Of a stretch of 40,233 bases of DNA, positions 3,001 to 35,859 are shown piece by piece. Origin of the DNA: Escherichia phage vB_EcoP-101118UKE1. The position numbers and the translations under genes were made by a program. The notes beneath the pieces were generated by a model, which made no database searches, was not told where the DNA came from, and was given only the letters and a program-made list of their open reading frames with translations. Every line of letters starts with the position of its first letter. Positions within the stretch are counted from its first letter, which is position 1. The stretch lies in sequence record MZ234021.1; one strand, written 5' to 3'.

Positions 3001-3303
3001 CTACCTCGTTCTCCTACAGATAAGCCTGAGCGTGCCATCGCGTATGGTGCAGCTACAAGTGACCCTGTGATGAATGTTGTTGGTAACTTCTTGGAGCAGG
3101 TTCCAGCTTTCGGATATGCTGCTAACGTTGGCGCTTCGGCTTACAACTTGGCTGGCTACCTCAAGGCTGATACTCGTGTCAACGAGCGTGACTACATGAC
3201 CGGGATGTATAATACGTTCCGTGAACTGGTTCCGAACGACCCCATTACCCAGAAGCTGCTGCTTGGAACGTTTGAGGAGCAAGGCATCCACATCAAGGAC
3301 TAA
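1..3303 (+). CDS. Internal virion (ejection) protein gp16, C-terminal 1100 aa; gene is split by the window boundary and continues from 39649..40233
   Basis: Long ORF colinear with T7 gp16 from about residue 220 onward (e.g. RSTWFGFG, TGGSP, VRSPTGMQSGASGK, GTYVPHVY, MDLWRM); stop TAA 3301-3303. Confidence 0.9.
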   Translation: MQEREDRSTWFGFGAATEAEVKNSMVGVAIRAGQTEDSLDVIGDVFNPTRWNNHKWSREELDQIRNSGVLPQYYGVITGGSPQNLTELINLALENQKLDQEKAKAGTGAQLAAGVIGAGVDPLTYVPIAGQVGKGGKLANKMFTVAAQSGALAGASEIARTSVAGGDAHVAEAIMGGALFGGGMTAIGDAIGKALGKSTNEFAGPATRLEARETARNVDGQDLSRMPIREGEETFSHQGVKFADVPNEPGSVRLEDGSILIGENPLNPKTRQVFDEVIEPERAAAGVNLGGLTEIGLKLLRSENPEIRGVAADLVRSPTGMQSGASGKIGTTASDVFERLRAVDHRFYNDIDDAVTEALKDPYFQTAFWRDSGAFRQDIYQRVSMAIEDGSGNLKAELTPGELKVYDLLKNQFDAKREMMENPAMFGRPDAQSIFPGSRFKGTYVPHVYSNQMKELYIKELGSPEALQEAIKKSWLTSYASRPEVKKRVDEALLEADPTLTPEGLAAAVDKYANDKAYGISHTEQFERSSVMEENINGLVGLENNSFLEARNLFDSDMSIVLPNGQTFSVNNLREWDMDKIVPAYNRRVNGDIAIMAGTGKTTKEMKDLVETMMNKAGDDGKLKGEVSTLRDTLKILTGRARRDGADDAAFATVMRTMTDLSFFAKNAYMGVQNLTEIGGMLARGNVRAMLHGVPIFRDLAFRNKKVGASEIKDLHNVIFGKELDDSIRPSKQDVIDRLRSYSDLGRGTATALGTAKYYTGELAVRSPFTKVLNGTTNYLLDAGRQGFLSDIVEHSLTGSKRKFDDRWLKTAGISDEQWSGIKSLIRESVTRGPDGKYTIKDKKAFSQDPRAMDLWRMGDTIADETLLRPHKLSNMDAKAYGPLAKTVLQFKNFVIKSINGRTMRTFYNATKNNRAIDAALSTVMSMGLAGIYYMAQAHVKAYAMQDGRDRDYLKQALDPTMIGYAALSRSSHLGGLLGVANILGGIAGYEDTKMLRSSILPRSPTDKPERAIAYGAATSDPVMNVVGNFLEQVPAFGYAANVGASAYNLAGYLKADTRVNERDYMTGMYNTFRELVPNDPITQKLLLGTFEEQGIHIKD

Positions 3304-3321
3304 ACTATCACTATAGGAAAC
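3299..3321 (+). promoter_or_regulatory. Phage RNAP promoter (phi17-type), +1 G at 3316
   Basis: ACTAAACTATCACTATA/GGAAAC; one of eleven copies of the core ACTATCACTATAGG. Confidence 0.8.
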
Positions 3322-3367
3322 TGGAGGCGCTACCATAGGTCTCCATTTAAATCACAAAGGAGGCATA

Positions 3368-5548
3368 ATGTCCACGATTACACAATTCCCTTCAGGAAAC
3401 ACTCAGTACAGGATTGAGTTCGACTACCTAGCCAGAACGTTTGTTGTTGTTACGCTGGTGAATAGCTCTAACCCTACCCTGAACCGTGTACTGGAAGTTG
3501 GTCGAGATTACCGATTCCTTAATCCAACGATGATTGAGATGTTGGCTGACCAATCAGGTTTCGACATCGTTCGTATTCACCGTCAGACTGGAACTGACTT
3601 AGTGGTAGACTTCAGGAATGGCTCAGTGTTGACAGCTAGTGACCTGACCAATTCAGAGCTTCAGGCTATCCATATTGCAGAAGAAGGTCGAGACCAAACG
3701 GTTGACTTAGCGAAGGAATATGCCGATGCTGCTGGCAGCTCTGCTGGCAACGCTAAGGATAGCGAGGACGAAGCACGCCGAATCACTGCGAGTATCAAGG
3801 CAGCTGGTAAAATTGGCTATATTACCCGTCGCTCCTTCGAGAAAGGCTTCAACGTTACAACATGGAACGAGGTCCTGCTATGGGAAGAGGATGGTGATTA
3901 TTACCGCTGGGATGGTACGCTTCCAAAGAACGTTCCCGCTGGTTCAACTCCTGAATCATCTGGTGGTATTGGGCTGAGTGCGTGGGTTAGTGTTGGTGAT
4001 GCGTCACTTAGAGCAAACCTGTCTGATAGTGATGGCGCTAAATACATAGGAAGTGGAGAAAGGACATTACTTGAGCACAACAATGATGTTTTGCACTCAA
4101 AAGACTTTCCAACACTGCAGGCAGCTATAGATGCATCTTTGCAAAAAAATGATCTACTGGTGTCTCCTGGCAATTATACTGAAAAAGTTACTATTGGAAA
4201 CGCGCAGTTAAAAGGTGTTGGCGGGGCCACGGTACTAAAAACTCCGGCAGACTTTACAAACACTGTTCAGGTTAATTTAGCTACACCTCATTGGCAATTC
4301 CGCCATAGTGGTGGTTTTGCTATAGATGGTTCCGGGACAACCGGGGCCGTAGGTATTAGTTTTGACCCGTCAGACCAATATTCCGGACGTCATAATTTTA
4401 GTGATGTATACATCCACAACATCAACAAGGCCATTCAGAAGCCTTCCGGGAACATCGGCAATACTTGGAGAAATATTGGGATATCTACGTGTGATTGGGG
4501 GTATTACGCGATTAGTGGCTCAGAGATGCATTGCGGGGCCGATACCCTCTACAATATCCACTTCGATGGCATCTCCACCTATGCAGTCTATCTAAACGGC
4601 ACTGTCGATAATGGCGGGGGGGGCGCATGGTGGCTTAAAGACTCCATTATTGAGGCTTCCGGAGGTGGCGGGATATACTTAAAAAGTAAATCGGGCGACT
4701 GTCCTACATCTCCATGCGGGGTATCCAATATATGGATGGAAGCGATCGCAACATCACCGGCTGTTCAGGTAGACGGCGTGGCGCAAAAACCGCGAGTTCT
4801 CAAGTTGGTAGACACAGCGATATTCTTTGCTGAGTATTCTTATCTCAACAACATCGAGCTATCCAACTCCAACTTAGTAACTTATGGTTGCCGTTTTGAC
4901 AACGCTGATGGCAATCAGGATATTGTCGTGGATGCACAAAGCACCATTGTAGCCCATGACGTGTATTTAAACGGCAGTTCTGGAAAGGACGTTATTGTGG
5001 AGTCCGTCGCATCGCAATCTGCAACGATAGCTACCACAAACTTATCTCTGAGGGGCAACTTAACAAGAGGGAGAGTATTTAATACGCCGACAGGGAATAA
5101 ATTAATGGCTATCACATTTGACTCAGGTAGCTATAATTTTTCTGGCAGCGGCACCGTTAACGGTTCGACTGTATCTGACGGACTTCACGCCGCTACATGT
5201 ACCGAATTTTCATTCCCCGGAGCCGGTTTATATGAAATGGTAGCGACAAGAACAACCATTACATCCGGTAGATGGTACGTGTGGGGAGTTAACTCACGCC
5301 TACAATCTGGCTCGGCGGATATTAGTATAACGTCAGGTATTACCATGGGTAGTGTTTACACAAAGCAGGGGGAGTGGATTAGCACTTTCGGTGTAGGAAA
5401 GGCATCTACCACTGGCACTGTAGCGCTATACGTTTCCACAGGAGGAGGTTCGGGAGCTACGGTCAGATTCAGTGACTTTTTCATCGCTGAGTTTACGACG
5501 CAAGCTCAGGCTTTATCTTTCGCCAATTCAAGGATGTCGTTATCATAA
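3368..5548 (+). CDS. Tail fiber / tailspike (gp17-like N-terminal adaptor, beta-helix-like C-terminal region)
   Basis: AAAGGAGG RBS 3356-3363; N-terminal ~150 aa resemble T7 gp17 (EFDYLARTFVVVTL, DYRF, LVDFRNGSVL, IAEEGRD); remainder unrelated to T7 fiber, Gly/Asn/Ser/Thr-rich with repetitive strand-like segments. Confidence 0.85.
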   Translation: MSTITQFPSGNTQYRIEFDYLARTFVVVTLVNSSNPTLNRVLEVGRDYRFLNPTMIEMLADQSGFDIVRIHRQTGTDLVVDFRNGSVLTASDLTNSELQAIHIAEEGRDQTVDLAKEYADAAGSSAGNAKDSEDEARRITASIKAAGKIGYITRRSFEKGFNVTTWNEVLLWEEDGDYYRWDGTLPKNVPAGSTPESSGGIGLSAWVSVGDASLRANLSDSDGAKYIGSGERTLLEHNNDVLHSKDFPTLQAAIDASLQKNDLLVSPGNYTEKVTIGNAQLKGVGGATVLKTPADFTNTVQVNLATPHWQFRHSGGFAIDGSGTTGAVGISFDPSDQYSGRHNFSDVYIHNINKAIQKPSGNIGNTWRNIGISTCDWGYYAISGSEMHCGADTLYNIHFDGISTYAVYLNGTVDNGGGGAWWLKDSIIEASGGGGIYLKSKSGDCPTSPCGVSNIWMEAIATSPAVQVDGVAQKPRVLKLVDTAIFFAEYSYLNNIELSNSNLVTYGCRFDNADGNQDIVVDAQSTIVAHDVYLNGSSGKDVIVESVASQSATIATTNLSLRGNLTRGRVFNTPTGNKLMAITFDSGSYNFSGSGTVNGSTVSDGLHAATCTEFSFPGAGLYEMVATRTTITSGRWYVWGVNSRLQSGSADISITSGITMGSVYTKQGEWISTFGVGKASTTGTVALYVSTGGGSGATVRFSDFFIAEFTTQAQALSFANSRMSLS

Positions 5549-5887: not shown

Positions 5888-6147
5888 CGCAGATGGACTT
5901 AGAGAAGTTCCTCTTGATGCTTGATACTGAACGTGCTCGACTCATGCTGCAAGACTTGCGGGATGACACTAAGCGTTCACCTCAGCTCTACAACGCCATT
6001 GAGAAGCTGCTTGCTCGTCACAACTTTGTGTTAAGCAAGGTGTCTGTGGACGAGAAGGCGCTGGCTGATATGGAGGCCCTGAACGCAGAGTACGATAAGG
6101 TTCTTTCAGCGACTGAGGATAATGACACCGGGTATGGTGTTCAATAA
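5884..6147 (+). CDS. Terminase small subunit (gp18-like)
   Basis: 87 aa; ATGA start/stop overlap with holin; size, position and RSPQLYNAI motif as in T7 gp18. Confidence 0.8.
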   Translation: MTQMDLEKFLLMLDTERARLMLQDLRDDTKRSPQLYNAIEKLLARHNFVLSKVSVDEKALADMEALNAEYDKVLSATEDNDTGYGVQ

Positions 6148-6158
6148 GTGTTAGACTC

Positions 6159-6185
6159 AAGGTCATTACTATATGTAGTGGCCTT
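6159..6185 (+). promoter_or_regulatory. Putative RNase III processing hairpin (R18.5-like)
   Basis: AAGGTCAT 6159-6166 pairs with GTGGCCTT 6178-6185 in RNA (G-U wobble allowed), upstream of Rz gene. Confidence 0.45.
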
Positions 6186-6248
6186 TATGGTTAACACACA
6201 CTACGGGCGGCGACGCTACGTGGATTCTGAGAAATGAGGAGGGCAACT

Positions 6249-6686
6249 ATGCTCGAACTTTTACGTAAAGCAATCCCGTGGCTGGTTGCAGGACTCCTGT
6301 TCTGTTCTGGCTACTGGGTGGCAGACAATAAGTGGGAGGCGAAGGTAAACAATGAGTACATCACGAAACTTGAGGCACGAGAGAATCAACGGGCTGCTGT
6401 CCAAGGTGAAATCAACAAAGTGTCAGCCGAGTGGCAAGACAAGATGTCCGCGCTGGAAGGCTCTACTGATAGGATTATTGCTGACCTTAACCGCGATAAC
6501 AAGCGGCTGCGCGTCCGAGTCAACACCTCAGGTCTCACCGAGTCAGATGTCAGTCGATGCTTCCCTAATGGTAGAGTCGAACTACACCCAGAAACTTCTA
6601 AAAGTCTTATCCGATTAACTCAGGAGGCAGACCTTAAGGAGAAGGCGCTTCAGGACACAATAAGGAGGCTCCAAGGTGTTAAGTGA
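6249..6686 (+). CDS. Rz-like i-spanin (gp18.5-like)
   Basis: GAGGAGGG RBS 6237-6243 before ATG 6249 (first in-frame start in the ORF track is 6234); MLELLRKAIPWLVAGLLF N-terminal TM, DLNRDNKRLRVRV as in T7 gp18.5. Confidence 0.85.
   Translation: MLELLRKAIPWLVAGLLFCSGYWVADNKWEAKVNNEYITKLEARENQRAAVQGEINKVSAEWQDKMSALEGSTDRIIADLNRDNKRLRVRVNTSGLTESDVSRCFPNGRVELHPETSKSLIRLTQEADLKEKALQDTIRRLQGVK
6352..6618 (+). CDS. Rz1-like o-spanin lipoprotein (gp18.7-like), embedded in +1 frame of Rz gene
   Basis: 88-aa ORF inside the Rz gene; PRWKALLIGLLLTLTAITSGCASES signal/lipobox pattern matching T7 gp18.7. Confidence 0.7.
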   Translation: MSTSRNLRHERINGLLSKVKSTKCQPSGKTRCPRWKALLIGLLLTLTAITSGCASESTPQVSPSQMSVDASLMVESNYTQKLLKVLSD

Positions 6687-7113
6687 TTACTACAAAGTGG
6701 ACCCGGCTAGTCCATCCGGTCTGGTCTCCGTTAGGACTGGAAAGCCTGTGGGGACATTAAGTCGGATGGGATATTGGATAGTACAGACACGAAGTCTAGG
6801 CAGTAAGCGGGCCCATCGTGTGATATGGGAACTAACCAATGGTCCTATACCGCATGGTATGCAAATAGACCACATCGACAGGAACCCTAGCAATAATACC
6901 TTAAGTAACTTACGGCTCGTTACTGCCGCTGAAAACACTTGGAATACTGGTAGCCATTATGACTCTAAGACAGGAGTGAAGTGCGTTACCCGTCACCAGA
7001 ATGGTTATAGGATTCAGGTTAAACGCGGGAATGCCTATATGCGAACAACACGTCCCACTTTAGAGGAGGCTATCGCTGTCCGGGACCTAATGCTGGAGGG
7101 ACTATATGTCTAA
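6676..7113 (+). CDS. HNH homing endonuclease
   Basis: GTG start with AAGGAGG RBS 6662-6668; motif [20 protein letters not shown] (HNH) followed by AP2-like C-terminal region; overlaps Rz end and terminase start. Confidence 0.85.
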
Positions 7114-8966: not shown

Positions 8967-8989
8967 ACTTAACTATCACTATAGGGAAG
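8967..8989 (+). promoter_or_regulatory. Phage RNAP promoter (phiOR-type, right genome end), +1 at 8984
   Basis: ACTTAACTATCACTATA/GGGAAG. Confidence 0.8.
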
Positions 8990-9361: not shown

Positions 9362-9404
9362 CTAAGGTCAGTACGTGGATAAAGACTCACTATACTGACC
9401 TTAG
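9362..9404 (+). repeat. 12-bp perfect inverted repeat enclosing a T7-type promoter-like motif, ~170 bp before the terminal repeat
   Basis: CTAAGGTCAGTA 9362-9373 and TACTGACCTTAG 9393-9404; spacer contains AAAGACTCACTATA. Confidence 0.6.
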
Positions 9405-9574: not shown

Positions 9575-9755
9575 TCTCACAGTTCAAGAACCTCAAGTCT
9601 CCCCCATAGGCCCTCTTTCAGTCCAGACCAAAGGCCCTACCCCAGTCTATCATAAGGTTAGACCGATGGTCAAGACTTCAGGTCAACGATAGGTTGTGGC
9701 TATGGCTTAGGGAAGGACGATAGGTTGGGACTATGGGTCTGTCTCTGAGTCTCTA
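9575..9755 (+). repeat. Probable terminal repeat (single collapsed copy) containing the physical genome ends; boundaries approximate
   Basis: Begins TCTCACAG...CCCCCATAGG like the T7 left terminus; ends near GTCTCTGAGTCTCT followed by ATCTGTA (T7 has ATCTGTT concatemer-junction pause motif). Confidence 0.4.
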
Positions 9756-10272: not shown

Positions 10273-10302
10273 AGGGCCTTTGAGTCTACATCTGAAGGCC
10301 CT
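10273..10302 (+). promoter_or_regulatory. Putative RNase III processing hairpin (R0.3-like) before first early gene
   Basis: AGGGCCTT 10273-10280 / AAGGCCCT 10295-10302 perfect stem; followed by the GGCCCTGACTGATAGTCACTAAC box. Confidence 0.5.
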
Positions 10303-10335
10303 GACTGATAGTCACTAACTTAAAGGATGGACACT

Positions 10336-10594: not shown

Positions 10595-10620
10595 CAGGTC
10601 GTTAGACTGATAGCGGCCTG
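10595..10620 (+). promoter_or_regulatory. Putative RNase III processing hairpin before Ocr gene
   Basis: CAGGTC / GGCCTG stem; followed by GGCCTGACTGATAGTCACTAAC box 10615-10636. Confidence 0.45.
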
Positions 10621-10664
10621 ACTGATAGTCACTAACACATAATTAACTTTGAGAGGATATAACT

Positions 10665-11324: not shown

Positions 11325-11348
11325 CAGGTCATCAATGCTGGTGGCCTG
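11325..11348 (+). promoter_or_regulatory. Putative RNase III processing hairpin before 11381 gene
   Basis: CAGGTCAT 11325-11332 / GTGGCCTG 11341-11348; followed by GGCCTGACTGATAGTCATTAAC box 11343-11364. Confidence 0.45.
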
Positions 11349-11380
11349 ACTGATAGTCATTAACAACTGAGAGGGAAGAT

Positions 11381-12377: not shown

Positions 12378-12400
12378 ACTTAACTATCACTATAGGACTC
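12378..12400 (+). promoter_or_regulatory. Phage RNAP promoter immediately upstream of the RNAP gene, +1 at 12395
   Basis: ACTTAACTATCACTATA/GGACTC, 75 nt before RNAP ATG. Confidence 0.7.
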
Positions 12401-12469: not shown

Positions 12470-15151
12470 ATGAGCGTCATCTCTATTGACAAGCACGACT
12501 TCTCTGATGTGTCGAACGCCATTGAGCCGTTTAACCTACTGGCTGACCACTACGGGCAAGACCTTGCAGTCAAACAGCTTCAGCTTGAGCACGAGGCATA
12601 CACTGAAGGCGAGCGACGTTTCATCAAGAACCTTGAGCGCCAGACCGAGCGCGGGGAACTGGCAGACAATCAGGTAGCCAAGCCTCTTATGCAGACTCTT
12701 GTTCCTAAGATTGTGCAAGCCGTCAAGGAGTGGCACGAAGGTCCAGACGGGAAGCTGTCAACCTCTCGTCCGAGCGTAGCGTTCACCATGTTGAGCACTG
12801 AAGAGAAGGCCGTAAAGGACCGCTCTTTGCGCATCTCCTGCGAATCTGCTGCGGTTATCATACTGAAGGTCATACTCTCCAAGCTGATCAAGCCTGAAGG
12901 GATACCGATTACACCGATGGCATCCGCGATAGGGCGCACACTTGAGGACGAAATCCGCTTCGGTCGCATCCGTGACAAAGAGAAAGAGCACTTCAAGAAG
13001 GCGATAGCTGATAACCTGAATAAGCGGGCCGGGGCGTCCTACAAGAAAGCCTACATGCAAGCGGTCGAGGCATCCATGCTGGAGCAAGGCCAACTGGAAG
13101 ATGCGTGGGGGACTTGGAGTCCTACAGAGGCTGTCCACGTTGGCGTCAAGATGCTTGAGATTGTCATCCAGTCAACACAACTGGTAGAGCTTAAGCGGTA
13201 CGGTGCTGGCAATGCAGCGGCTGACGTTGAGATGGTCCACCTGTCAGACTTCTGGGTCAAGAAGATGGCACAACGAGGATTCAGCCTTGCGGGTATCGCT
13301 CCAGTCTACCAGCCTTGCGTCGTTCCACCTAAGCCGTGGACCGGTGTCGTAGGAGGTGGGTACTGGGCCAAAGGACGCAGACCACTGCCACTGATTCGCT
13401 TAGGGTCTAAGTCTGCGGTGGCACGTTACGAAGACGTGTACATGCCTGAAGTCTATGACGCTGTGAATATCATCCAGAATACACCTTGGAAAGTGAACAA
13501 GAAGGTTCTGGACGTGGTGAACATGGTCGAGAAGCTGAACAACACGCCTATTGATGACATCCCTCAGATGGAACCGCTGAAGCCTGAGGACTATGCGGGT
13601 GAGACTGAAGAAGAACTCAAGGCATGGAAGAAGGCTGCTGCTGGTATCTATCGCCGCGAGAAGGCCAGACAGTCACGAAGATTGTCACTGAGCTTTATCG
13701 TCAACCAAGCGAACAAGTTCTCTCAGTTCAAGGCCATCTGGTTCCCGTATAACATGGACTGGCGTGGGCGCGTCTACGCTGTTCCGATGTTCAACCCTCA
13801 GGGTAACGACATGCAGAAGGGTCTTCTGACTCTGGCAGTCGGTAAGCCTATTGGTGCTGATGGTTTCAAATGGCTGAAGGTCCACGGTGCAAACTGCGCG
13901 GGTGTCGATAAAGTCACCTTCGAGGAGCGTATCAAGTGGGTGGAAGATAACCACGACAACATCATGGCTGCTGCTAAGGCGCCGATGGATAGTATTAAGT
14001 GGTGGGGCAAGTTAGACTCTCCGTTCTGCTTCCTAGCGTTCTGCTTCGAGTATGCTGGCGTAATGCACCACGGCTTGTCTTACTCCTGCTCGCTGCCGAT
14101 AGCGTTCGATGGGTCCTGCTCTGGGATTCAGCACTTCAGCGCTATGCTTCGCGACCACATCGGTGGACATGCAGTAAACCTGACGCCATCCGGTAAGGTC
14201 CAAGACATCTACCGAATCGTGTCTGACCGCATTGAGGAGGAGCTTAAAGTCCTACTGGTTAACGGTACGGACAACGAGATGGTAACTCACGAGGACAAGA
14301 AAACTGGTGAGATTACCGAGCGTCTCAAGCTGGGGACACGAGAGCTTGCCAGTCAGTGGCTTACCTACGGTATGTCACGAAAGGTCACTAAGCGTTCGGT
14401 CATGACTCTGGCCTACGGGTCGAAAGAGTACGGCTTCGCAGACCAAGTTTACGAGGACATCGTGATGCCAGCGATTGACTCAGGGTCTGGCGCTATGTTC
14501 ACTGAACCAAGCCAAGCATCTCGCTTCATGGCTAAGATGATTTGGGAAGCTGTGAGTGTGACCGTAGTTGCTGCGGTTGACGCGATGAAATGGCTTCAGG
14601 GTGCTGCCAAGCTGCTTGCTGCTGAAGTGAAGGACAAGAAGACTGGAGAAATCCTGAAGCCTTGTCTTCCGGTACACTGGGTCACACCTGATGGTTTCCC
14701 TGTCTGGCAGGAATACCGCAAGAAGGACACCACTCGTCTGAACCTGATGTTCTTAGGGTCATTCAACCTTCAGCCTACCGTCAACAAAGGCACGAAGAAA
14801 GAGCTGGACAAGCACAAGCAGGAGTCAGGCATTAGCCCGAACTTCGTCCACTCACAAGATGGTAGCCACCTCCGCAAGACTGTAGTCCACACGCATCGCA
14901 AGTACGGCGTGATGTCATTCGCAGTGATTCACGATAGCTTCGGGACCATCCCGGCTGACGCTGAGTATCTGTTCCGTGGAGTCCGTGAGACGATGGTCGA
15001 GACCTACCGCGACAACGATGTGCTGCTTGACTTCTACGAGCAGTTTGAATACCAGCTTCACGAGAGCCAGAGAGACAAGTTGCCTGAGCTTCCGAAGAAA
15101 GGTAAACTGAATATCGAAGACATCTTGTCTTCAGACTTTGCATTCGCTTAA
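12470..15151 (+). CDS. Single-subunit DNA-directed RNA polymerase (gp1)
   Basis: 893 aa, colinear with T7/T3 RNAP throughout (PMFNPQGNDMQKGLLTLA, FCFLAFCFEYAGV, AFDGSCSGIQHFSAM, TLAYGSKEYGF, HDSFGT, C-terminal FAFA). Confidence 0.98.
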   Translation: MSVISIDKHDFSDVSNAIEPFNLLADHYGQDLAVKQLQLEHEAYTEGERRFIKNLERQTERGELADNQVAKPLMQTLVPKIVQAVKEWHEGPDGKLSTSRPSVAFTMLSTEEKAVKDRSLRISCESAAVIILKVILSKLIKPEGIPITPMASAIGRTLEDEIRFGRIRDKEKEHFKKAIADNLNKRAGASYKKAYMQAVEASMLEQGQLEDAWGTWSPTEAVHVGVKMLEIVIQSTQLVELKRYGAGNAAADVEMVHLSDFWVKKMAQRGFSLAGIAPVYQPCVVPPKPWTGVVGGGYWAKGRRPLPLIRLGSKSAVARYEDVYMPEVYDAVNIIQNTPWKVNKKVLDVVNMVEKLNNTPIDDIPQMEPLKPEDYAGETEEELKAWKKAAAGIYRREKARQSRRLSLSFIVNQANKFSQFKAIWFPYNMDWRGRVYAVPMFNPQGNDMQKGLLTLAVGKPIGADGFKWLKVHGANCAGVDKVTFEERIKWVEDNHDNIMAAAKAPMDSIKWWGKLDSPFCFLAFCFEYAGVMHHGLSYSCSLPIAFDGSCSGIQHFSAMLRDHIGGHAVNLTPSGKVQDIYRIVSDRIEEELKVLLVNGTDNEMVTHEDKKTGEITERLKLGTRELASQWLTYGMSRKVTKRSVMTLAYGSKEYGFADQVYEDIVMPAIDSGSGAMFTEPSQASRFMAKMIWEAVSVTVVAAVDAMKWLQGAAKLLAAEVKDKKTGEILKPCLPVHWVTPDGFPVWQEYRKKDTTRLNLMFLGSFNLQPTVNKGTKKELDKHKQESGISPNFVHSQDGSHLRKTVVHTHRKYGVMSFAVIHDSFGTIPADAEYLFRGVRETMVETYRDNDVLLDFYEQFEYQLHESQRDKLPELPKKGKLNIEDILSSDFAFA

Positions 15152-15698: not shown

Positions 15699-15721
15699 CC
15701 TAAACTATCACTATAGGCTTA
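15699..15721 (+). promoter_or_regulatory. Phage RNAP promoter (phi1.1-type), +1 at 15716
   Basis: CCTAAACTATCACTATA/GGCTTA. Confidence 0.8.
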
Positions 15722-15726
15722 GACTC

Positions 15727-15753
15727 AAGGTCATGACTCAAAGTCGTGGCCTT
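15727..15753 (+). promoter_or_regulatory. Putative RNase III processing hairpin (R1.1-like) just after phi1.1-type promoter
   Basis: AAGGTCAT 15727-15734 / GTGGCCTT 15746-15753. Confidence 0.5.
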
Positions 15754-15794
15754 CATGATTAACCCTAAATAAACACTACTGGAGATTTAACCGT

Positions 15795-17565: not shown

Positions 17566-17588
17566 CCTAAGCTATCACTATAGGACAA
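17566..17588 (+). promoter_or_regulatory. Phage RNAP promoter, +1 at 17583
   Basis: CCTAAGCTATCACTATA/GGACAA (one mismatch at -12). Confidence 0.75.
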
Positions 17589-18285: not shown

Positions 18286-18444
18286 ATGACTGAGGTTGAG
18301 AAGAAATACATCGTGGAGCTTGAGGGTCGCGTTCAGTCCTTCGAGGTTCCGTTGTACGCAAAGTCTCTTGAAGAGGCTACCCTGAAGTCCCAAGAGTATG
18401 AGGACGCTGGGTTTGTGGTCGGACGGATTCGCCCTGAGACCTAA
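18286..18444 (+). CDS. gp2-like inhibitor of host RNA polymerase (52 aa)
   Basis: Not in ORF track; AAGGAG RBS 18272-18277; [14 protein letters not shown]...[11 protein letters not shown] matches T7 gp2. Confidence 0.8.
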
Positions 18445-18462
18445 ACTATCACTGTAGGACAG
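18440..18462 (+). promoter_or_regulatory. Phage RNAP promoter variant (phi2.5-type), +1 at 18457
   Basis: CCTAAACTATCACTGTA/GGACAG (A to G at -3). Confidence 0.65.
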
Positions 18463-20608: not shown

Positions 20609-20824
20609 ATGATTAAACTTATCGAATTTCTTGGTCGTCTGGTGGTGCGTGGTTATCGTCGTGCTGCGGTTATGGAACGAAAGGTAGCAGAGAAGACTGC
20701 CGATGGTGCGGCTGATGCTGCTGCTCTGGCTGACAAGCTGACCATCGCGTCACTGGAAGCTGGCATGAAGGCGCGTCAGGCTGACACCAAAGCCGACCAG
20801 TTGTCTCAGGTCTTCAAAGCCTAA
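20609..20824 (+). CDS. Hypothetical Ala-rich small protein (71 aa)
   Basis: AAAGGAGAA RBS; position of T7 gene 3.8 but not HNH-like. Confidence 0.55.
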   Translation: MIKLIEFLGRLVVRGYRRAAVMERKVAEKTADGAADAAALADKLTIASLEAGMKARQADTKADQLSQVFKA

Positions 20825-20842
20825 ACTATCACCTTAGGGATG
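20820..20842 (+). promoter_or_regulatory. Phage RNAP promoter variant upstream of gene 4, +1 at 20837
   Basis: CCTAAACTATCACCTTA/GGGATG (divergent at -4/-3). Confidence 0.55.
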
Positions 20843-22637: not shown

Positions 22638-22802
22638 ATGCTACGAAAACTTAAAGCTCGCTACCATCGGTTCATGTACAAATGGTGGAGCGATGAAGCA
22701 ACCTTCCTGTCCAACATTCTGGGAGACCAGAGGTTCGACTCTAAGGCATGGAAGAAAGCTAACCGTAAGTTCATGTACCACTTCTTACGTACAGACTTCT
22801 AG
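22638..22802 (+). CDS. Hypothetical small protein (54 aa)
   Basis: AGAGGAGAG RBS 22622-22630; not in ORF track. Confidence 0.5.
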   Translation: MLRKLKARYHRFMYKWWSDEATFLSNILGDQRFDSKAWKKANRKFMYHFLRTDF

Positions 22803-22812
22803 GTCTAGACTC

Positions 22813-22837
22813 AAGGTCATTCACATAGAGTGGCCTT
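22813..22837 (+). promoter_or_regulatory. Putative RNase III processing hairpin after gene 4 region
   Basis: AAGGTCAT 22813-22820 / GTGGCCTT 22830-22837. Confidence 0.45.
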
Positions 22838-22865
22838 TATGATTAGACTAAACGGAGGATTAACC

Positions 22866-23267
22866 ATGTTTGATTGCATTGAGTGGACCGGGTGCCGAGA
22901 CCGTTTCGGATACGGTATGCGAAAGGTCAACGGGAAAGTCCGTAGACTGCATCTAATAGCCTTCGAGGAGGCGAACGGTCCGATACCTGAAGGAATGGTC
23001 GTGCGACATAAGTGTGACAACCCATCGTGTTACAACCCAGCACACTTAGAGCTGGGGACACGGGCTGACAACAATCGTGATAGAGACGTAAGAGGTCGAA
23101 CAGCTAAGGGAGTGAGGCATTGGAGTTCTAGGCTTACACCTGAAATAATACAAGAGGCCAAGGTGCTCTACGCAGGAGGTGGATGGACTCACCGCTCCCT
23201 AGGTGAGAAGTATGGAGTGGGACACCGCACGATAGCTAGAGCAATTGGAGGAGAAACATGGACTTAA
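22866..23267 (+). CDS. HNH homing endonuclease (paralog of 39218..39667)
   Basis: ACGGAGGA RBS before ATG 22866; RHKCDNPSCYNPAHLELGTRADN motif. Confidence 0.8.
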   Translation: MFDCIEWTGCRDRFGYGMRKVNGKVRRLHLIAFEEANGPIPEGMVVRHKCDNPSCYNPAHLELGTRADNNRDRDVRGRTAKGVRHWSSRLTPEIIQEAKVLYAGGGWTHRSLGEKYGVGHRTIARAIGGETWT

Positions 23268-25426
23268 GTAACGTATACGGGTCTGACATCGAGACCAACG
23301 GTCTCCTTGATACAGTCTCCCAGTTTCACTGTGGGGTCCTGATTAACGCCGAGTCGAATGAGACCCTTAAGTATGGGGTAGCTCCGATGGTCGGTATCGT
23401 CGGTGGCTTCAAAGAGTATGTTCATAAAGTGGAAGAGATTGCCGCATCGCCTGATGGTATGCTTGTATTCCACAACGGTATCAACTATGACGTACCGGCT
23501 ATCGACAAGCTGAAGCGTCTGTACTTTGGGAAGCGTTTTAACTTCCCGAAACACAAGATGGTTGATACCTTGGTGCTGGGCCGCTTGATGTATCCAAACA
23601 TTAAGTTCTCAGACATGGGCGCTGTGAAAGCTGGTCGTCTGCCACCTCAGATGATGGGACGACAGTCTCTTGAGGCTTGGGGCTATCGTCTCGGTGAGAT
23701 GAAAGGTGAATACAAACACGATTATGTTGCCAAATGCAAGGCTGAAGGTATCGAATATAAGGCTGGGGACGAATGGTTGTTCCCGTCTCAGGAGATGCTG
23801 GACTATAACGTTCAAGACGTTGTGGTCACACTGGCGTTGTTCAAGAAGTTCCTGACTGACAAGTATTACTTCCAGTCTGAACAGTTCGCTTTCGACCAGA
23901 TTTATGCGTTGCGTCTGGAACATGATGCTGCGTGGACCTGTGCGAAGATGGAACGTAACGGCTATCCGATGAACACCGAGATGGTCGAAGGCTTATATCG
24001 TGAACTCACCGTCAAACGTGCAGAGTTGTTGGACAAGCTGCGTTCGACTTTCGGTAGCTGGTATGCACCAAAGGGAGGCAAGGAGTTCTTCAAGCACCCA
24101 CGGACAGGCAAGGACCTTCCGAAGTATCCGCGAGTCGTGTATCCTAAGGTCGGGTCAGTATTCAAGAAGCCGAAGAACAAAGCTCAACGATTAGGTCTGG
24201 AGCCTTGCGAGTTCGACTCACGAGACACGATGGAAGGAGCACCGTTCACACCTATCACTTACGTTGAGTTTAATCCGGGAAGCGGAGACCACTTAGCGAA
24301 AGTCCTGATGGAGCGTGGCTGGGAGCCTGTGGACTTCACTGACACCGGGAAACCTGTAGTCGATGACGAGACGTTGGAACACGTTAAGTTACCAGACGCA
24401 GAGGCTCAGGCTTGCGTAGAGCTGGTCCGTGAGTATCTGGTAGTCCAGAAGCGCATCGGTCAGGCGGCTGAAGGTAAGAACGCATGGTTGAAACTTGTAG
24501 GTCCAGACGGACGTATGCACGGCTCAATAAACCCATGCGGGGCAGTAACCGGACGTGCGACCCATAGTTCACCAAACATGGCTCAGGTCCCGGCTAACGG
24601 TGCTCCATATGGTGAGACTTGCCGTGGTGCTTTCGGTGCAGCGTGGAACAAGAAGGACGGTAAGCCAGACCCTTGGATTCAAGTTGGTGTGGATGCCTCA
24701 GGTCTTGAGCTTCGTTGTCTTGGGAACAGAGCGGCTCCGTTTGATGGTGGTGCATATGCGAAGACTGTGGTAGAAGGTGACATCCACTGGGCCAACGCAG
24801 TAAACGCTGGGTTAGCACCTAACGTCCAACGCGATAAGTCTAACCACGACCATGAGGCTTTCCGTAACAACGCTAAGACGTTCATCTACGCGTTCCTGTA
24901 TGGTGCAGGGGCCGCTAAGATTGGACTGATAGTAGGCGGTGGTAAGAAGGAAGGTTCAGCGCTCATGAAGAAATTCATTGAGGGTACACCAGCTATCAAG
25001 GACCTCAGGGAAGCTGTAAGTAATACGTTAATCTCAGACTCTAAGTGGGTGGACGGAGAGAACATCGTTAAATGGAAACGTCGCTGGCTGAAAGGTCTGG
25101 ATGGTCGTCGTATTCACATCCGGTCTCCACACTCAGCACTTAACGCCCTACTTCAGGGGGACGGTGCGGTTGTCTGTAAGCACTGGATGGTACTGACTGA
25201 GAAGAAACTTGAAGAGGCTGGTTACGGTAACGGATGGGACGGCGACTTTGCGCTAATGGCTTGGATTCACGATGAATTGCAGATAGCGTGCCGTACTCAG
25301 GAGATAGCAGAAGATGTCGTCCGTATTGCTCAAGAGGCGATGCGCGAGGTCGGACGCTTCTATAACTTCAAGTGTGAACTTGATACGGAGGGTAAGATTG
25401 GACCAACGTGGAAAGAGTGTCATTGA
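23258..25426 (+). CDS. DNA polymerase (gp5)
   Basis: 722 aa, colinear with T7 gp5 (SDIE exo motif, AVTGRATH, NAKTFIYAFLYGAG, HDE). Confidence 0.97.
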   Translation: MDLSNVYGSDIETNGLLDTVSQFHCGVLINAESNETLKYGVAPMVGIVGGFKEYVHKVEEIAASPDGMLVFHNGINYDVPAIDKLKRLYFGKRFNFPKHKMVDTLVLGRLMYPNIKFSDMGAVKAGRLPPQMMGRQSLEAWGYRLGEMKGEYKHDYVAKCKAEGIEYKAGDEWLFPSQEMLDYNVQDVVVTLALFKKFLTDKYYFQSEQFAFDQIYALRLEHDAAWTCAKMERNGYPMNTEMVEGLYRELTVKRAELLDKLRSTFGSWYAPKGGKEFFKHPRTGKDLPKYPRVVYPKVGSVFKKPKNKAQRLGLEPCEFDSRDTMEGAPFTPITYVEFNPGSGDHLAKVLMERGWEPVDFTDTGKPVVDDETLEHVKLPDAEAQACVELVREYLVVQKRIGQAAEGKNAWLKLVGPDGRMHGSINPCGAVTGRATHSSPNMAQVPANGAPYGETCRGAFGAAWNKKDGKPDPWIQVGVDASGLELRCLGNRAAPFDGGAYAKTVVEGDIHWANAVNAGLAPNVQRDKSNHDHEAFRNNAKTFIYAFLYGAGAAKIGLIVGGGKKEGSALMKKFIEGTPAIKDLREAVSNTLISDSKWVDGENIVKWKRRWLKGLDGRRIHIRSPHSALNALLQGDGAVVCKHWMVLTEKKLEEAGYGNGWDGDFALMAWIHDELQIACRTQEIAEDVVRIAQEAMREVGRFYNFKCELDTEGKIGPTWKECH

Positions 25427-25457
25427 CCCTCGAACCCAGACCCTACGCTTCCACACC

Positions 25458-25739
25458 ATGCCTACCGGATGTATCGTCTGCGTGTCCCACAAGAGGAACC
25501 AAGATGGGTACTTCCGGTACTCCATGGGAAGCTACAGGAAGGGCAACAAGTTCGCCTTCATGTTCCACCGATGGGTGTGGGAGCAGAAGCGCGGACCTAT
25601 ACCAAATGGCTACGAAATAGACCATTTGTGCTTGAACCGTGGGTGCTGCAACATAGAGCATCTACAGTGTATTCCAAAACGCGAACACGTCATTAAGACG
25701 AACCGTGAGCGCAAACTTGTTAAGAAGGAGTGTCACTAA
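25458..25739 (+). CDS. HNH homing endonuclease (gp5.3 position)
   Basis: EIDHLCLNRGCCNIEHL motif; start set at first ATG after polymerase stop; no clear SD, start uncertain. Confidence 0.7.
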   Translation: MPTGCIVCVSHKRNQDGYFRYSMGSYRKGNKFAFMFHRWVWEQKRGPIPNGYEIDHLCLNRGCCNIEHLQCIPKREHVIKTNRERKLVKKECH

Positions 25740-27218: not shown

Positions 27219-27241
27219 ACTAAACTATCACTATAGGGACT
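27219..27241 (+). promoter_or_regulatory. Phage RNAP promoter (phi6.5-type), +1 at 27236
   Basis: ACTAAACTATCACTATA/GGGACT. Confidence 0.85.
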
Positions 27242-27302
27242 TTAGGACCTAAGATATGACTATAAGATAGACTTTAGTCTTAACTTAAAGAGGAGATTCA
27301 AG

Positions 27303-28493: not shown

Positions 28494-30062
28494 ATGGCTG
28501 AACGTGAAGGGTTCGCTGCTGAAGGCGCTAAGTCAGTTTATGATAGATTGAAGAACGGACGACAGCCTTACGAGACCCGCGCACAGAACTGTGCTGCTGT
28601 CACTATCCCGTCACTGTTTCCTAAGGAATCAGACAACTCGTCTACTGAATATACCACTCCGTGGCAAGCTGTAGGTGCTCGCTGCTTGAACAACTTGGCT
28701 GCAAAGCTGATGTTGGCGTTATTCCCTCAGTCACCGTGGATGCGACTGACAGTCTCCGAATATGAGGCCAAGACCTTGAGTCAGGACTCAGAGGCTGCTG
28801 CTCGTGTTGACGAAGGGCTTGCTATGGTCGAGCGTGTGTTGATGGCCTACATGGAGACTAACAGTTTCCGTGTGCCATTGTTCGAAGCTCTGAAGCAGCT
28901 TATCGTCTCCGGTAACTGTCTGCTTTACATTCCAGAGCCTGAACAGGGTACTTACAGTCCGATGCGGATGTACCGCTTAGTGTCTTACGTTGTTCAACGT
29001 GATGCGTTCGGTAACATCTTGCAGATTGTGACTCTCGACAAGGTAGCTTTCAGTGCTCTACCGGAAGACGTGAAGTCTCAACTCAATGCAGACGACTATG
29101 AGCCTGACACCGAGCTTGAAGTGTATACGCACATCTACCGTCAAGACGACGAGTATCTACGCTACGAGGAAGTGGAAGGGATTGAGGTAGCAGGGACCGA
29201 TGGTTCCTACCCGCTGACTGCATGTCCGTACATCCCGGTACGAATGGTTCGACTGGATGGTGAAGACTACGGTCGTTCTTACTGCGAGGAGTATCTGGGC
29301 GACCTTAACTCGCTGGAGACGATTACAGAAGCTATCACCAAAATGGCTAAGGTAGCCTCCAAGGTGGTGGGACTCGTTAACCCGAACGGTATCACGCAAC
29401 CTCGACGTCTGAACAAGGCGGCTACAGGTGAGTTCGTGGCTGGTCGCGTTGAGGACATCAACTTCCTGCAACTGACGAAAGGTCAGGACTTTACGATTGC
29501 CAAGTCGGTGGCTGACGCTATCGAGCAACGTTTAGGCTGGGCCTTCCTTCTTAATAGTGCTGTTCAGCGTAATGCAGAGCGTGTCACTGCTGAAGAGATT
29601 CGTTATGTTGCTGGCGAACTGGAGGCGACATTAGGTGGCGTGTACTCAGTACAGTCACAAGAGCTTCAGTTACCTATCGTCCGTGTGCTGATGAACCAGC
29701 TTCAGTCTGCTGGCATGATTCCTGACCTTCCGAAAGAAGCGGTAGAGCCTACGGTCTCCACTGGTCTTGAAGCGTTAGGCCGTGGTCAAGACTTAGAGAA
29801 GCTGACTCAGGCAGTCAACATGATGACCGGGCTACAGCCTCTTGCTCAGGACCCAGACATTAACTTGCCTACCCTGAAGCTGCGACTGCTGAATGCCTTA
29901 GGCATTGACACCGCTGGTCTACTCCTTACGCAGGACGAGAAGATTCAGCGCATGGCTGAACAGTCGTCTCAACAGGCAGTAGTCCAAGGTGCTGGTGCTG
30001 CTGGTGCCAACATGGGCGCTGCTGTAGGTCAGGGAGCTGGTGAGGACATGGCTCAAGCCTAA
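28494..30062 (+). CDS. Portal (head-to-tail connector) protein gp8
   Basis: 522 aa, AAGGAGGTGA RBS; position and size as T7 gp8. Confidence 0.95.
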   Translation: MAEREGFAAEGAKSVYDRLKNGRQPYETRAQNCAAVTIPSLFPKESDNSSTEYTTPWQAVGARCLNNLAAKLMLALFPQSPWMRLTVSEYEAKTLSQDSEAAARVDEGLAMVERVLMAYMETNSFRVPLFEALKQLIVSGNCLLYIPEPEQGTYSPMRMYRLVSYVVQRDAFGNILQIVTLDKVAFSALPEDVKSQLNADDYEPDTELEVYTHIYRQDDEYLRYEEVEGIEVAGTDGSYPLTACPYIPVRMVRLDGEDYGRSYCEEYLGDLNSLETITEAITKMAKVASKVVGLVNPNGITQPRRLNKAATGEFVAGRVEDINFLQLTKGQDFTIAKSVADAIEQRLGWAFLLNSAVQRNAERVTAEEIRYVAGELEATLGGVYSVQSQELQLPIVRVLMNQLQSAGMIPDLPKEAVEPTVSTGLEALGRGQDLEKLTQAVNMMTGLQPLAQDPDINLPTLKLRLLNALGIDTAGLLLTQDEKIQRMAEQSSQQAVVQGAGAAGANMGAAVGQGAGEDMAQA

Positions 30063-30080
30063 ACTATCACTATAGGAACA
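30058..30080 (+). promoter_or_regulatory. Phage RNAP promoter (phi9-type), +1 at 30075
   Basis: CCTAAACTATCACTATA/GGAACA, overlaps gp8 stop. Confidence 0.85.
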
Positions 30081-31044: not shown

Positions 31045-31067
31045 ACTAAACTATCACTATAGGGAGA
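31045..31067 (+). promoter_or_regulatory. Phage RNAP promoter (phi10-type, major capsid), +1 at 31062
   Basis: ACTAAACTATCACTATA/GGGAGA, the only copy with the full GGGAGA start. Confidence 0.9.
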
Positions 31068-32482: not shown

Positions 32483-32488
32483 TTGAAA

Positions 32489-32526
32489 CCCCTTGGGTGC
32501 CTTCGGGTGCTTGAGGGGTTTTTTTT
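32489..32526 (+). terminator. Tphi-like late terminator after capsid gene
   Basis: CCCCTTGGGTGC-CTTCGG-GTGCTTGAGGGG stem-loop followed by TTTTTTTT, closely resembling T7 Tphi. Confidence 0.9.
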
Positions 32527-32540
32527 CTTAAGGAGGGACT

Positions 32541-32630: not shown

Positions 32631-32641
32631 GGAGTAAACCT

Positions 32642-33208: not shown

Positions 33209-33435
33209 TGGCTAGTCACAACCTGAAGATTCACCGCCAGCACTTTGGTCTGGTACAACTAGGTCTAAAGACAGCAGAGCTGAGACTTAACGACCGGGAC
33301 TTTAAGGTTGGCGACTGGCTTATCCTGAATGAGTGGGACAACGGGTATACTGGACAACAGGTAGCGCGTAAGGTTGTCCACATTGCTGACGTTGGTGAGA
33401 TCGCTGAGGGATATGTCCTAATGAGTATGATTTAA
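33208..33435 (+). CDS. Small ASCH/PUA-like protein (DUF3850-like?), inserted between gp11 and gp12
   Basis: GGGAGGG RBS, TAATG overlap with gp11 stop; LKIHRQHF...KTAELRLNDRDFKVGDWLIL pattern. Confidence 0.55.
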   Translation: MASHNLKIHRQHFGLVQLGLKTAELRLNDRDFKVGDWLILNEWDNGYTGQQVARKVVHIADVGEIAEGYVLMSMI

Positions 33436-33444
33436 GGAGAGCCT

Positions 33445-35802
33445 ATGCCATTAATTACGCAAAGCATAAAAAATCTTAAAGGTGGTATTAGCCAACAGCC
33501 TGACATCCTGAGGTTCTCAGACCAAGGCGAGGCTCAAGTTAACTGCTGGTCATCCGAGAGTGATGGCCTCCAGAAGCGTCCACCTACAGTCTTCAAGCGA
33601 CGTCTTAACATCGACGTTGGGAGCAACCCTAAGTTCCACCTGATTAACCGTGATGAGCAGGAGCAGTATTACATCGTGTTCAACGGGTCCAACATTCAGG
33701 TAGTCGACTTGAGCGGTAATCAGTACTCAGTTTCAGGTGCGGTAGACTACGTTAAGTCGTCCAACCCGCGAGATGACATCCGTGTCGTTACAGTTGCAGA
33801 CTATACGTTCGTCGTTAACCGTAAGGTTGTCGTTAAAGGTGGAAGCGATAAGTCACACTCTGGTTATAATCGTAAAGCACGCGCTTTAATTAACCTGCGT
33901 GGTGGACAGTATGGTCGCACCCTTAAGGTAGGAATCAACGGAGGCGTTAAGGTTTCGCATAAGTTGCCAGCAGGTAATGATGCCGAGAATGACCCTCCTA
34001 AGGTTGATGCTCAGGCTATCGGTGCAGCTCTGAGAGACCTTCTTGTTGCTGCTTACCCTACCTTCACGTTCGACCTTGGGTCTGGATTCCTGTTAATCAC
34101 TGCCCCTTCAGGGACTGACATTAACTCAGTGGAGACGGAGGATGGCTACGCTAACCAGCTAATCAGCCCAGTACTCGACACGGTGCAAACAATCTCTAAG
34201 CTGCCTCTTGCAGCTCCAAATGGGTACATCATTAAGATTCAAGGTGAGACCAACAGTAGCGCCGATGAGTATTACGTGATGTATGACTCCAACACTAAGA
34301 CGTGGAAGGAGACAGTAGAGCCGGGAGTGGTCACTGGGTTCGATAACACCACAATGCCACATGCTCTGGTTAGACAATCTGACGGCTCCTTTGAGTTCAA
34401 GACTCTGGACTGGTCTAAGCGGGGTGCTGGTAATGATGACACAAACCCTATGCCTAGCTTCGTGGATGCTACGATTAACGATGTGTTCTTCTACAGGAAC
34501 AGGCTAGGGTTCTTGTCAGGAGAGAACGTAATCATGAGCCGTTCAGCCAGCTACTTTGCGTTCTTCCCTAAGAGTGTGGCGACATTGAGTGATGATGACC
34601 CTATTGACGTAGCTGTAAGTCACCCTAGAATCTCAATACTTAAGTATGCCGTTCCGTTTAGCGAGCAGCTACTACTTTGGTCAGATGAGGTGCAGTTCGT
34701 GATGACAAGCTCGGGGGTCCTTACCTCGAAGTCTATCCAGCTTGATGTAGGCTCAGAGTTTGCCTTAGAAGATAACGCCAGACCGTTCGCTGTAGGACGC
34801 TCAGTCTTCTTCTCAGCGCCTCGTGGGTCATTCACCAGTATTAAGCGATACTTCGCTGTAGCAGATGTGTCTGACGTGAAGGATGCCGATGATACCACTG
34901 GTCACGTACTGTCCTATATCCCTAACGGGGTGTTTGACATTCAAGGTACAGGGACTGAGAACTACATCTGCGTCAACTCCACAGGTGCATGCAACCGAAT
35001 CTACATCTACAAGTTCTTGTTTAAGGACGGCGTACAACTTCAAGCCTCTTGGTCGCACTGGGAGTTCCCTAAAGCTGATAAGATTCTGGCGTCTGCGTCG
35101 ATTGGCTCTACCATGTTCATTGTTCGTCAGCACCAAGGGGGTGTGGACATTGAGCACCTTAAGTTCATCAAGGAGGCAACCGACTTTCCATTAGAGCCGT
35201 ATAGACTCCACGTTGACTCTAAGGTGTCTATGGTAATACCAATTGGCTCATACAACGCTGACACCTATAAGACTACGGTTGACATTGGTTCTGCTTATGG
35301 TGGAAACGCTCCGTCTCCCGGTAGGTACTATCTGATTGACAGTCAGGGTGCCTACGTGGACCTTGGTGAATTGACCGACATCTCAACTGTGGCTGTACTC
35401 AATGGTGATTGGTCAGGACGTACAGTGTTCATCGGACGGTCTTATCTGATGTCCTACAAGTTCTCACGGTTCCTGATTAAGATTGAAGACGAGAGTGGCA
35501 CTCAGTCTGAAGACACTGGTCGTCTACAGCTTCGTCGTGCTTGGGTAAACTACAAGGACACTGGCGCTCTTAGACTCATTGTCAGAAACGGTGAGCGGGA
35601 GTTCGTGAACACCTTTAATGGGTACACCCTTGGTCAGCAAACCATAGGGACTACCAACATTGGGGATGGTCAGTATCGATTCGCTATGAATGGCAACGCA
35701 TTAACCACGAGTCTAACCTTAGAGTCCGACTATCCTACCCCGGTGTCCATCGTTGGGTGTGGCTGGGAGGCGTCATACGCTAAGAAAGCTCGTTCCGTCT
35801 AA
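33445..35802 (+). CDS. Tail tubular protein B (gp12)
   Basis: 785 aa; SIKNLKGGISQQPDILR, GFLSGENVIMSR, DDDPIDVAVS, LRRAWVNY, IVGCGWEA match T7 gp12. Confidence 0.95.
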   Translation: MPLITQSIKNLKGGISQQPDILRFSDQGEAQVNCWSSESDGLQKRPPTVFKRRLNIDVGSNPKFHLINRDEQEQYYIVFNGSNIQVVDLSGNQYSVSGAVDYVKSSNPRDDIRVVTVADYTFVVNRKVVVKGGSDKSHSGYNRKARALINLRGGQYGRTLKVGINGGVKVSHKLPAGNDAENDPPKVDAQAIGAALRDLLVAAYPTFTFDLGSGFLLITAPSGTDINSVETEDGYANQLISPVLDTVQTISKLPLAAPNGYIIKIQGETNSSADEYYVMYDSNTKTWKETVEPGVVTGFDNTTMPHALVRQSDGSFEFKTLDWSKRGAGNDDTNPMPSFVDATINDVFFYRNRLGFLSGENVIMSRSASYFAFFPKSVATLSDDDPIDVAVSHPRISILKYAVPFSEQLLLWSDEVQFVMTSSGVLTSKSIQLDVGSEFALEDNARPFAVGRSVFFSAPRGSFTSIKRYFAVADVSDVKDADDTTGHVLSYIPNGVFDIQGTGTENYICVNSTGACNRIYIYKFLFKDGVQLQASWSHWEFPKADKILASASIGSTMFIVRQHQGGVDIEHLKFIKEATDFPLEPYRLHVDSKVSMVIPIGSYNADTYKTTVDIGSAYGGNAPSPGRYYLIDSQGAYVDLGELTDISTVAVLNGDWSGRTVFIGRSYLMSYKFSRFLIKIEDESGTQSEDTGRLQLRRAWVNYKDTGALRLIVRNGEREFVNTFNGYTLGQQTIGTTNIGDGQYRFAMNGNALTTSLTLESDYPTPVSIVGCGWEASYAKKARSV

Positions 35803-35809
35803 CTTATTG

Positions 35810-35859
35810 AAGGGCCTATAGATTTACCTTAACTATCACTATAGGGACTATAGGCCCTT
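35810..35859 (+). repeat. 12-bp perfect inverted repeat bracketing the phi13-type promoter
   Basis: AAGGGCCTATAG 35810-35821 and CTATAGGCCCTT 35848-35859. Confidence 0.6.
35827..35849 (+). promoter_or_regulatory. Phage RNAP promoter (phi13-type), +1 at 35844
   Basis: CCTTAACTATCACTATA/GGGACT, flanked by a 12-bp inverted repeat. Confidence 0.85.

Follow-up and report, generated by a model that had tools for sequence, protein, structure and literature searches.

The record MZ234021.1 of Escherichia phage vB_EcoP-101118UKE1 (40,233 nt, analysed over its whole length and referred to below as the window) carries eleven copies of a conserved element of ~19 bp, which almost certainly serve a K1F-type podophage as promoters for the single-subunit RNA polymerase (RNAP) that it encodes in gene 1. 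The RNAP and its promoters are the same as the pair of phage K1F, which is already characterised and in use as a T7-orthogonal tool and is not new; the finding is therefore correct but ordinary. Judged by its sequence, the window is a circularly permuted genome of a Kayfunavirus (K1F-like podophages of the Studiervirinae): gene 16 (~1295 aa) starts at 39649 and continues in frame across the window end to 1-3303, and alignment with the K1F ends places the physical genome ends and a terminal repeat of ~180 bp at ~9575-9753.

The promoter family

A search of the whole window with ACTATCACTATAGG, allowing up to 2 mismatches, returned 11 matches (Table 1), all on the + strand and co-oriented with the genes, against a chance expectation of 0.26 (maximum 3) in dinucleotide-preserving shuffles. 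An earlier reading of the sequence, made without database searches (the sequence-only reading), had reported eleven repeats of a shared core, nine exact and two variant, in the span 3299-35849, which corresponds to -17 of the first site through +6 of the last. The number of repeats is borne out, but only 8 of the 11 copies are exact; the two variants with +1 at 18457 and 20837 were described correctly, and a third, the copy starting at 17571 with G at -12, had been missed.

Alignment of the 11 sites on the presumed +1 G delimits the conserved element from -17 to +2 as MCTWAACTATCACTATAGG. Positions -16, -15, -13, -11 to -5 and -2 to +2 are invariant, A is found at -12 in 10 of the 11 sites, and +3 is a purine in all sites but one, which has C. 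The upstream block at -17 to -13 reads MCTWA, with invariant C-16, T-15 and A-13, A or C at -17 and A or T at -14; it agrees with the CTWAACTATCACTATAGG repeats of phage Sparklingdew and with the minimal promoter of phage Ro45lw, as expected for a K1F-type promoter. The block ACTAT at -12 to -8 together with the T7-group core CACTATAGG is present in all 11 sites (with the one variant at -12), and 135 unique sites collected from K1F, Ro45lw, MZ234009 and IMG/VR contigs follow the same pattern (-12 to -8 and -11 to -5).

A position weight matrix built from -17 to +6 of the 11 sites and run over both strands and the circular junction, the check that the sequence-only reading had proposed, recovered exactly the same sites, with scores of 31.6-38.1 bits; the next candidate reached 12.7 bits, with a maximum of 15.7 in the shuffled null. 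No weaker or antisense promoters were found in this rescan, and there is no phiOL-type promoter near the left end of the genome among the sites that it returned. The candidate of 12.7 bits, at 27265 and hence within the null range, belongs to a degenerate promoter-like stretch, CCTAAGATATGACTATAAGA, at 27241-27267, 29 nt 3' of the phi6.5 start, which may be a decayed duplicate promoter. A search of Rfam at gathering thresholds gave no match in the window.

Comparison with T7 proteins by tblastn revealed a gene order fully collinear with that of T7, with the sites at T7 promoter junctions. The nine T7 names that had been assigned by position (phi17, phiOR, phi1.1, phi2.5, phi4, phi6.5, phi9, phi10 and phi13) all fit; the two sites left unnamed are those upstream of gene 1 and at phi1.6, and several sites are not strictly intergenic as had been stated but overlap with the final codons of the gene before them (gene 16, gene 2, gene 8). 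All three off-consensus sites, as well as the site with C at +3, belong to the DNA-metabolism (class II) region, and perfect sites are found before the structural genes and at phiOR. By analogy, this distribution would mirror that of T7, whose class II promoters are weaker than those of class III.

The promoter before gene 1 recurs in K1F (+1 at 2491) and Ro45lw (+1 at 2417) and has no counterpart among the phage promoters of T7, where the same position is occupied only by the E. coli C promoter. Its location 75 nt upstream of the gene implies that the RNAP also transcribes its own gene, which suggests a positive feedback that T7 lacks.

The RNA polymerase and its specificity loop

The product of gene 1 contains the RNA_pol (PF00940, 1e-106) and RPOL_N (PF14700, 5e-15) domains, matches the T7 RNAP structures 1CEZ and 1ARO over its full length and retains D537, K631, Y639, H784, D812 and the C-terminal FA, as expected for a single-subunit RNAP, so that the earlier description of the enzyme as T7-like was sound. 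Its identity is 99.1% to the RNAP of K1F (885/893 residues), 94.1% to Ro45lw, 64% to T7, 64% to T3, 60% to K11 and 32% to SP6. The 8 differences from K1F (aa 82, 113, 140, 226, 330, 374, 510 and 628) are conservative or scattered substitutions, and none falls within the specificity loop (aa 754-771).

Alignment of the loop with characterised RNAPs, likewise proposed by the sequence-only reading, showed a beta-hairpin (TTRLNLMFLGSFNLQPTV) identical to that of K1F and different from that of T7 by Q744T, Q754S, R756N and I761V, with R746, N748 and Q758 unchanged. The residues that define the K1F hairpin (N748, S754, N756, Q758 and V761, in T7 numbering) are thus all present. The base-specific contacts in the T7 promoter complex are made by R746, N748, R756 and Q758 (summarised in PMC11880802); because R756 is among these residues, its replacement by N fits the change from C:G to A:T at -9. 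The sequence-only reading had pointed to a divergent RNAP segment around FLGSFNLQPTVNKGTKKELDKHKQ (aa 761-784, nt 14750-14821, T7 751-774). This peptide does hold the changes at T7 positions 754, 756 and 761, yet the base-reading change is confined to its first part, and as an unusually divergent segment it had to be rejected: it is 58% identical to T7, compared with 64% for the entire protein, and ranks 223 of 854 windows.

The stretches of the RNAP least like T7 are T7 77-115 and ~236 onward. The equivalent of the AT-rich recognition loop, KLSTSRPSVAF, has LSTSR in place of the basic KRGKR of T7, and ~11 extra residues follow just downstream. This alteration correlates with the non-T7 upstream block MCTWA and its invariant C-16 and T-15; by analogy with the T7 structure, the region may read positions -17 to -13.

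Comparison with the promoter systems of K1F and Ro45lw

A direct scan of the K1F genome (NC_007456) revealed the same 11 sites at the same junctions (11/11 positional orthologues), with the same consensus and near-identical flanks. Even the three variants recur: phi1.6 carries G at -12, phi2.5 carries G at -3, and the site before gene 4 has C at -4 with T at -3. Together with the near-identical RNAP, its identical specificity loop and the promoter just upstream of gene 1, the sequence features of the promoter system stand in one-to-one identity with K1F, and we found no difference in the promoter system between the two phages. The own specificity that had been ascribed to the pair on the strength of its loop is accordingly supported, but it would be that of K1F.

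Ro45lw contains 12 such sites, the twelfth being located upstream of the DNA polymerase gene. In addition, position -2 is A in its promoter before gene 1. It shares with the window the G-12 variant at the same junction (annotated as phi1.6) and a G-3 variant, and its RNAP loop departs from that of the window only in M750L and a single T-to-S replacement outside the contact residues. The minimal promoter reported for Ro45lw, ACTTAACTATCACTATAGGGA, equals the phiOR site of the window exactly from -17 to +4, including the +1 G.

The RNAP gene shows 99.9% nucleotide identity to that of Escherichia phage vB_EcoP-22664BS1 (MZ234009), 95-98% to many Kayfunavirus records, and at least 90% to 175 GenBank phage records; the first 25 kb of the window are 96.5% identical to MZ234009 over 96% of their length. 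An exact scan of IMG/VR with the 18-mer CTWAACTATCACTATAGG found many copies in ~25 contigs of 39-40 kb. The exact 18-mer is also present in three IMG/VR contigs (L041, 72.9 kb; L068, 29.3 kb; L078, 29.1 kb) of sizes atypical of the 39-40 kb Kayfunavirus genomes.

Comparison with T7, T3, K11 and SP6

Consensus sequences for T7, T3 and K11 were derived from annotated promoters, and SP6 was compared by RNAP identity. From -17 to +6 the consensus is TAATACGACTCACTATAGGGAGA in T7 (class II/III), AATTAACCCTCACTAAAGGGAGA in T3, AATTAGGACACACTATAGGGAGA in K11 and MCTWAACTATCACTATAGGRA in the window. The earlier statements that -11 to -8 is CTAT in this phage, GACT in T7 and CCCT in T3, and that -8 to -1 is T7-like, agree with the derived sequences; in fact the whole core from -8 to +2 (TCACTATAGG) is identical to T7. 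The differences from T7 lie at -12 to -9 (ACTA versus CGAC) and at -17 to -13 (MCTWA versus TAATA), and the latter block differs from that of every classical T7-group promoter. No T7-consensus site (TAATACGACTCACTATAGG) occurs in the window at up to 3 mismatches, nor does a K1F-type site occur in the T7 genome at the same threshold; the T3 (AATTAACCCTCACTAAAGG) and K11 (AATTAGGRCACACTATAGG) promoters differ from the window at both -12 to -8 and -17 to -13. The claim of a consensus distinct from T7, T3, K11 and SP6 is consequently supported by the derived consensus for the first three and by the low RNAP identity for the last, but the decisive comparison, that with K1F, had been omitted from it.

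Besides the promoter core, T7 shares with the window the enzyme fold, the catalytic residues, the gene order and promoter placement, the T-phi terminator that follows gene 10 and hairpins of the RNase III type. T7 has 17 promoters compared with 11 in the window, which lacks phiOL and a homologue of the gene 0.7 kinase.

An exact copy of the T7-type core, GACTCACTATA, at 9384-9394 raised the possibility of a vestigial T7-type promoter but was rejected as a functional site: it has CT instead of GG and no upstream block, lies inside a hairpin with a 12-bp stem and is not exactly conserved in K1F or Ro45lw. This hairpin (9362-9404, dG -20.5, z -3.7) is present in MZ234009, and its minus strand reads as a TTGACT-17-TATAGT sigma70-like site.

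Characterised K1F-type pairs and the predicted mechanism

Temme et al. (2012) identified RNAP hairpin subfamilies together with promoters predicted by PHIRE, grafted the K1F hairpin (T7 Q744-I761) into T7 RNAP and replaced the promoter positions -12 to -7; the resulting T7(K1F) enzyme gave 17-fold induction on the K1F-type promoter and was orthogonal to T7, T3 and N4 (PMC3458549). This graft variant is listed as 632S, 754S, 756N and 761V with the cognate promoter ACTAT (Table 2 in PMC11880802), and in the work of Segall-Shapiro et al. (2014) the K1F loop was put to use again, as a sigma fragment. The native K1F RNAP and the promoter PK1F are in use for expression across a broad range of hosts and for targeted mutagenesis, and the pair is orthogonal to MmP1 and VP4 (PMC12218169). 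Takatsuki et al. (2025) purified the Ro45lw RNAP, defined its minimal promoter and located the +1 G by deep sequencing (PMC12272871), and a genome report from 2026 called the CTWAACTATCACTATAGG repeats of Sparklingdew, another Kayfunavirus, promoters (PMC13298934). For K1F and Ro45lw, published work documents that the promoters are active, where +1 lies and that T7 promoters are discriminated against, and by analogy the same should extend to the nearly identical enzyme of the window. Experiments of the kind that the sequence-only reading had proposed are therefore already in print for these two systems.

By homology with T7, the host RNA polymerase would make the early transcript including gene 1, and the phage RNAP would then bind each promoter of ~19-23 bp. 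The hairpin of the specificity loop would read ACTATC in the major groove (about -12 to -7), with N instead of R at T7 position 756 matching the loss of C:G at -9, and the N-terminal loop would read MCTWA at -17 to -13. TATA at -4 to -1 would melt, RNA would start at GG (+1/+2), and transcription of the capsid region would end at the predicted T-phi-type hairpin.

The engineered T7(K1F) RNAP/PK1F pair has the same hairpin residues (754S, 756N and 761V) and the same ACTAT block at -12 to -8 as the window. It is, however, a chimera, in which the rest of the enzyme and the TAATA at -17 to -13 are those of T7, whereas the natural system combines MCTWA with a rebuilt N-terminal loop region. We speculate, tentatively and with doubts that outweigh our confidence, that the native pair has a second specificity determinant, MCTWA read by the rebuilt N-terminal loop, along with a feedback through the gene-1 promoter that is absent in T7. 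If this were true, T7-type promoters would be excluded more strictly by the native enzyme than by the loop-graft chimera. The published loop grafts kept the T7 TAATA at -17 to -13.

Alternative explanations

Several points weigh against our interpretation. Orthogonality to T7 has been measured mainly with the T7 chimera carrying the K1F loop, no direct test of a native K1F-type RNAP on a T7 promoter was found in the accessible literature, and for the phage of the window itself we infer the start sites and the relative strengths of the promoters. Moreover, the orthogonality score of the graft set is 8, a modest or limited value, with non-cognate pairs still showing relatively high activity (PMC11880802).

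One alternative is that the sites are K1F-type promoters but that the native enzyme is weakly selective, reads T7-type promoters to an appreciable extent and is not truly orthogonal, an explanation that we consider unlikely, though by some distance the strongest of those examined. Apart from the limited orthogonality of the grafts, it could draw on the retention of R746, N748 and Q758, on the identity with T7 from -8 to +2, and on the variable cross-reactivity of T7 RNAP with foreign promoters reported by Takatsuki et al. (PMC12272871). On the other hand, four consecutive positions (-12 to -9) and the entire block from -17 to -13 differ from T7, the R756N replacement removes the contact to the -9 G, the genome makes use of no T7-like site (none at up to 3 mismatches), and the K1F graft was in fact measured as orthogonal by Temme et al. 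(PMC3458549).

That the repeats are not promoters at all, but RNase III sites, homing-endonuclease targets, or replication or packaging signals, is hardly credible. Some sites do stand directly before RNase III-type hairpins, as at 15719-15763, and the genome does contain four HNH endonuclease genes. However, the HNH genes do not adjoin the sites, and the hairpin repeats constitute a family of their own, found without the motif as well (6146-6198). The core is the T7-group promoter core, every copy runs in the direction of the genes at T7 promoter junctions, and the same sequence drives transcription by the purified, 94%-identical Ro45lw RNAP with a mapped +1 (PMC12272871).

The idea of a novel orthogonal system, with a specificity unlike K1F as well as T7, T3, K11 and SP6, could appeal to the lack of an identical GenBank record (the best match being that to MZ234009 given above) and to the 8 residues that distinguish the RNAP from K1F, but it is effectively refuted by sequence identity, as all 8 lie outside a loop identical to that of K1F and the consensus and even the site-specific variants equal those of K1F.

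Taking the eleven elements as K1F-type promoters, the discovery value is small, as K1F-type promoters and RNAP are a documented and experimentally used T7-like pair; the practical value lies in annotation, namely 11 phage promoters with their +1 positions, a T-phi terminator and a gene 1 with K1F specificity.

Other features of the window

Table 1. Predicted promoters and other features of the window (promoter positions cover -17 to +6)
Feature	Position	Strand	Presumed +1	Start of ACTATCACTATAGG match	Remarks
Promoter phi17	3299-3321	+	3316	3304	Gene 16 (stop 3303) / tail-spike gene 17 (3368); K1F orthologue +1 32614
Promoter phiOR	8967-8989	+	8984	8972	3' of terminase gene 19 (stop 8872); K1F orthologue +1 38869
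Promoter before gene 1	12378-12400	+	12395	12383	Full consensus; upstream of RNAP gene
Promoter phi1.1	15699-15721	+	15716	15704	Upstream of gene 1.2; RNase III-type hairpin directly after
Promoter phi1.5/1.6	17566-17588	+	17583	17571	G at -12; ligase / gene 1.6
Promoter phi2.5	18440-18462	+	18457	18445	G at -3; gene 2 / gene 2.5; overlaps end of gene 2 (stop 18444)
Promoter phi3.8/4	20820-20842	+	20837	20825	C-4 and T-3; precedes primase/helicase gene 4
Promoter phi6.5	27219-27241	+	27236	27224	Gene 6 / gene 6.5
Promoter phi9	30058-30080	+	30075	30063	Gene 8 / gene 9; overlaps end of gene 8 (stop 30062)
Promoter phi10	31045-31067	+	31062	31050	Gene 9 / major capsid gene 10; initiating GGGAGA as in T7 class III promoters
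Promoter phi13	35827-35849	+	35844	35832	Gene 12 / gene 13
Gene 1, T7-like single-subunit RNAP, 893 aa	12470-15151	+			Pfam, identity and structure match
AT-rich recognition loop equivalent	12752-12784	+			aa 95-105; alignment to T7
Specificity-loop beta-hairpin codons	14729-14782	+			aa 754-771 = T7 744-761; identical to K1F
T-phi-type terminator	32485-32530	+			17-bp stem, then U8; dG -25.2, z -4.75; 3' of capsid gene 10 and a small open reading frame (ORF) at 32276-32482
Gene 17, tail spike, 726 aa	3368-5548				T7-tail-fibre N-terminal adaptor and Tail_spike_N (TSP1/Gp66) domain
HNH_3 homing-endonuclease ORF	6676-7113				Between genes 18.5 and 19
HNH_3 homing-endonuclease ORF	22830-23267				Between genes 4 and 5
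HNH_3 homing-endonuclease ORF	25314-25739				After gene 5
HNH_3 homing-endonuclease ORF	39218-39667				Between genes 15 and 16

The T-phi-type terminator lies where T7 and T3 have their T-phi. The tail spike encoded by gene 17 is not the K1F endosialidase (gp17 of K1F has 1064 aa), which implies that the specificity for the host capsule or O-antigen differs from that of K1F; the HNH_3 ORFs likewise differ from K1F in number and placement.

A family of hairpins, TTAGACTCAAGGTCAT...GTGGCCTTYATGRTTAAC, occurs at 6146-6198 (z -6.0), 15719-15763 (dG -17.7, z -3.5) and 22800-22820 and resembles RNase III processing sites; the copy at 15719 starts 3 nt after the phi1.1 +1. Another repeat, GGCCTGACTGATAGTCAYTAAC, is found three times in the early region (10291-10320, 10608-10637 and 11336-11365), just upstream of small early ORFs. 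The copy folded as 10285-10325 forms a weak structure, no better than shuffles, and the repeat is possibly an early-mRNA processing or translation-initiation context.

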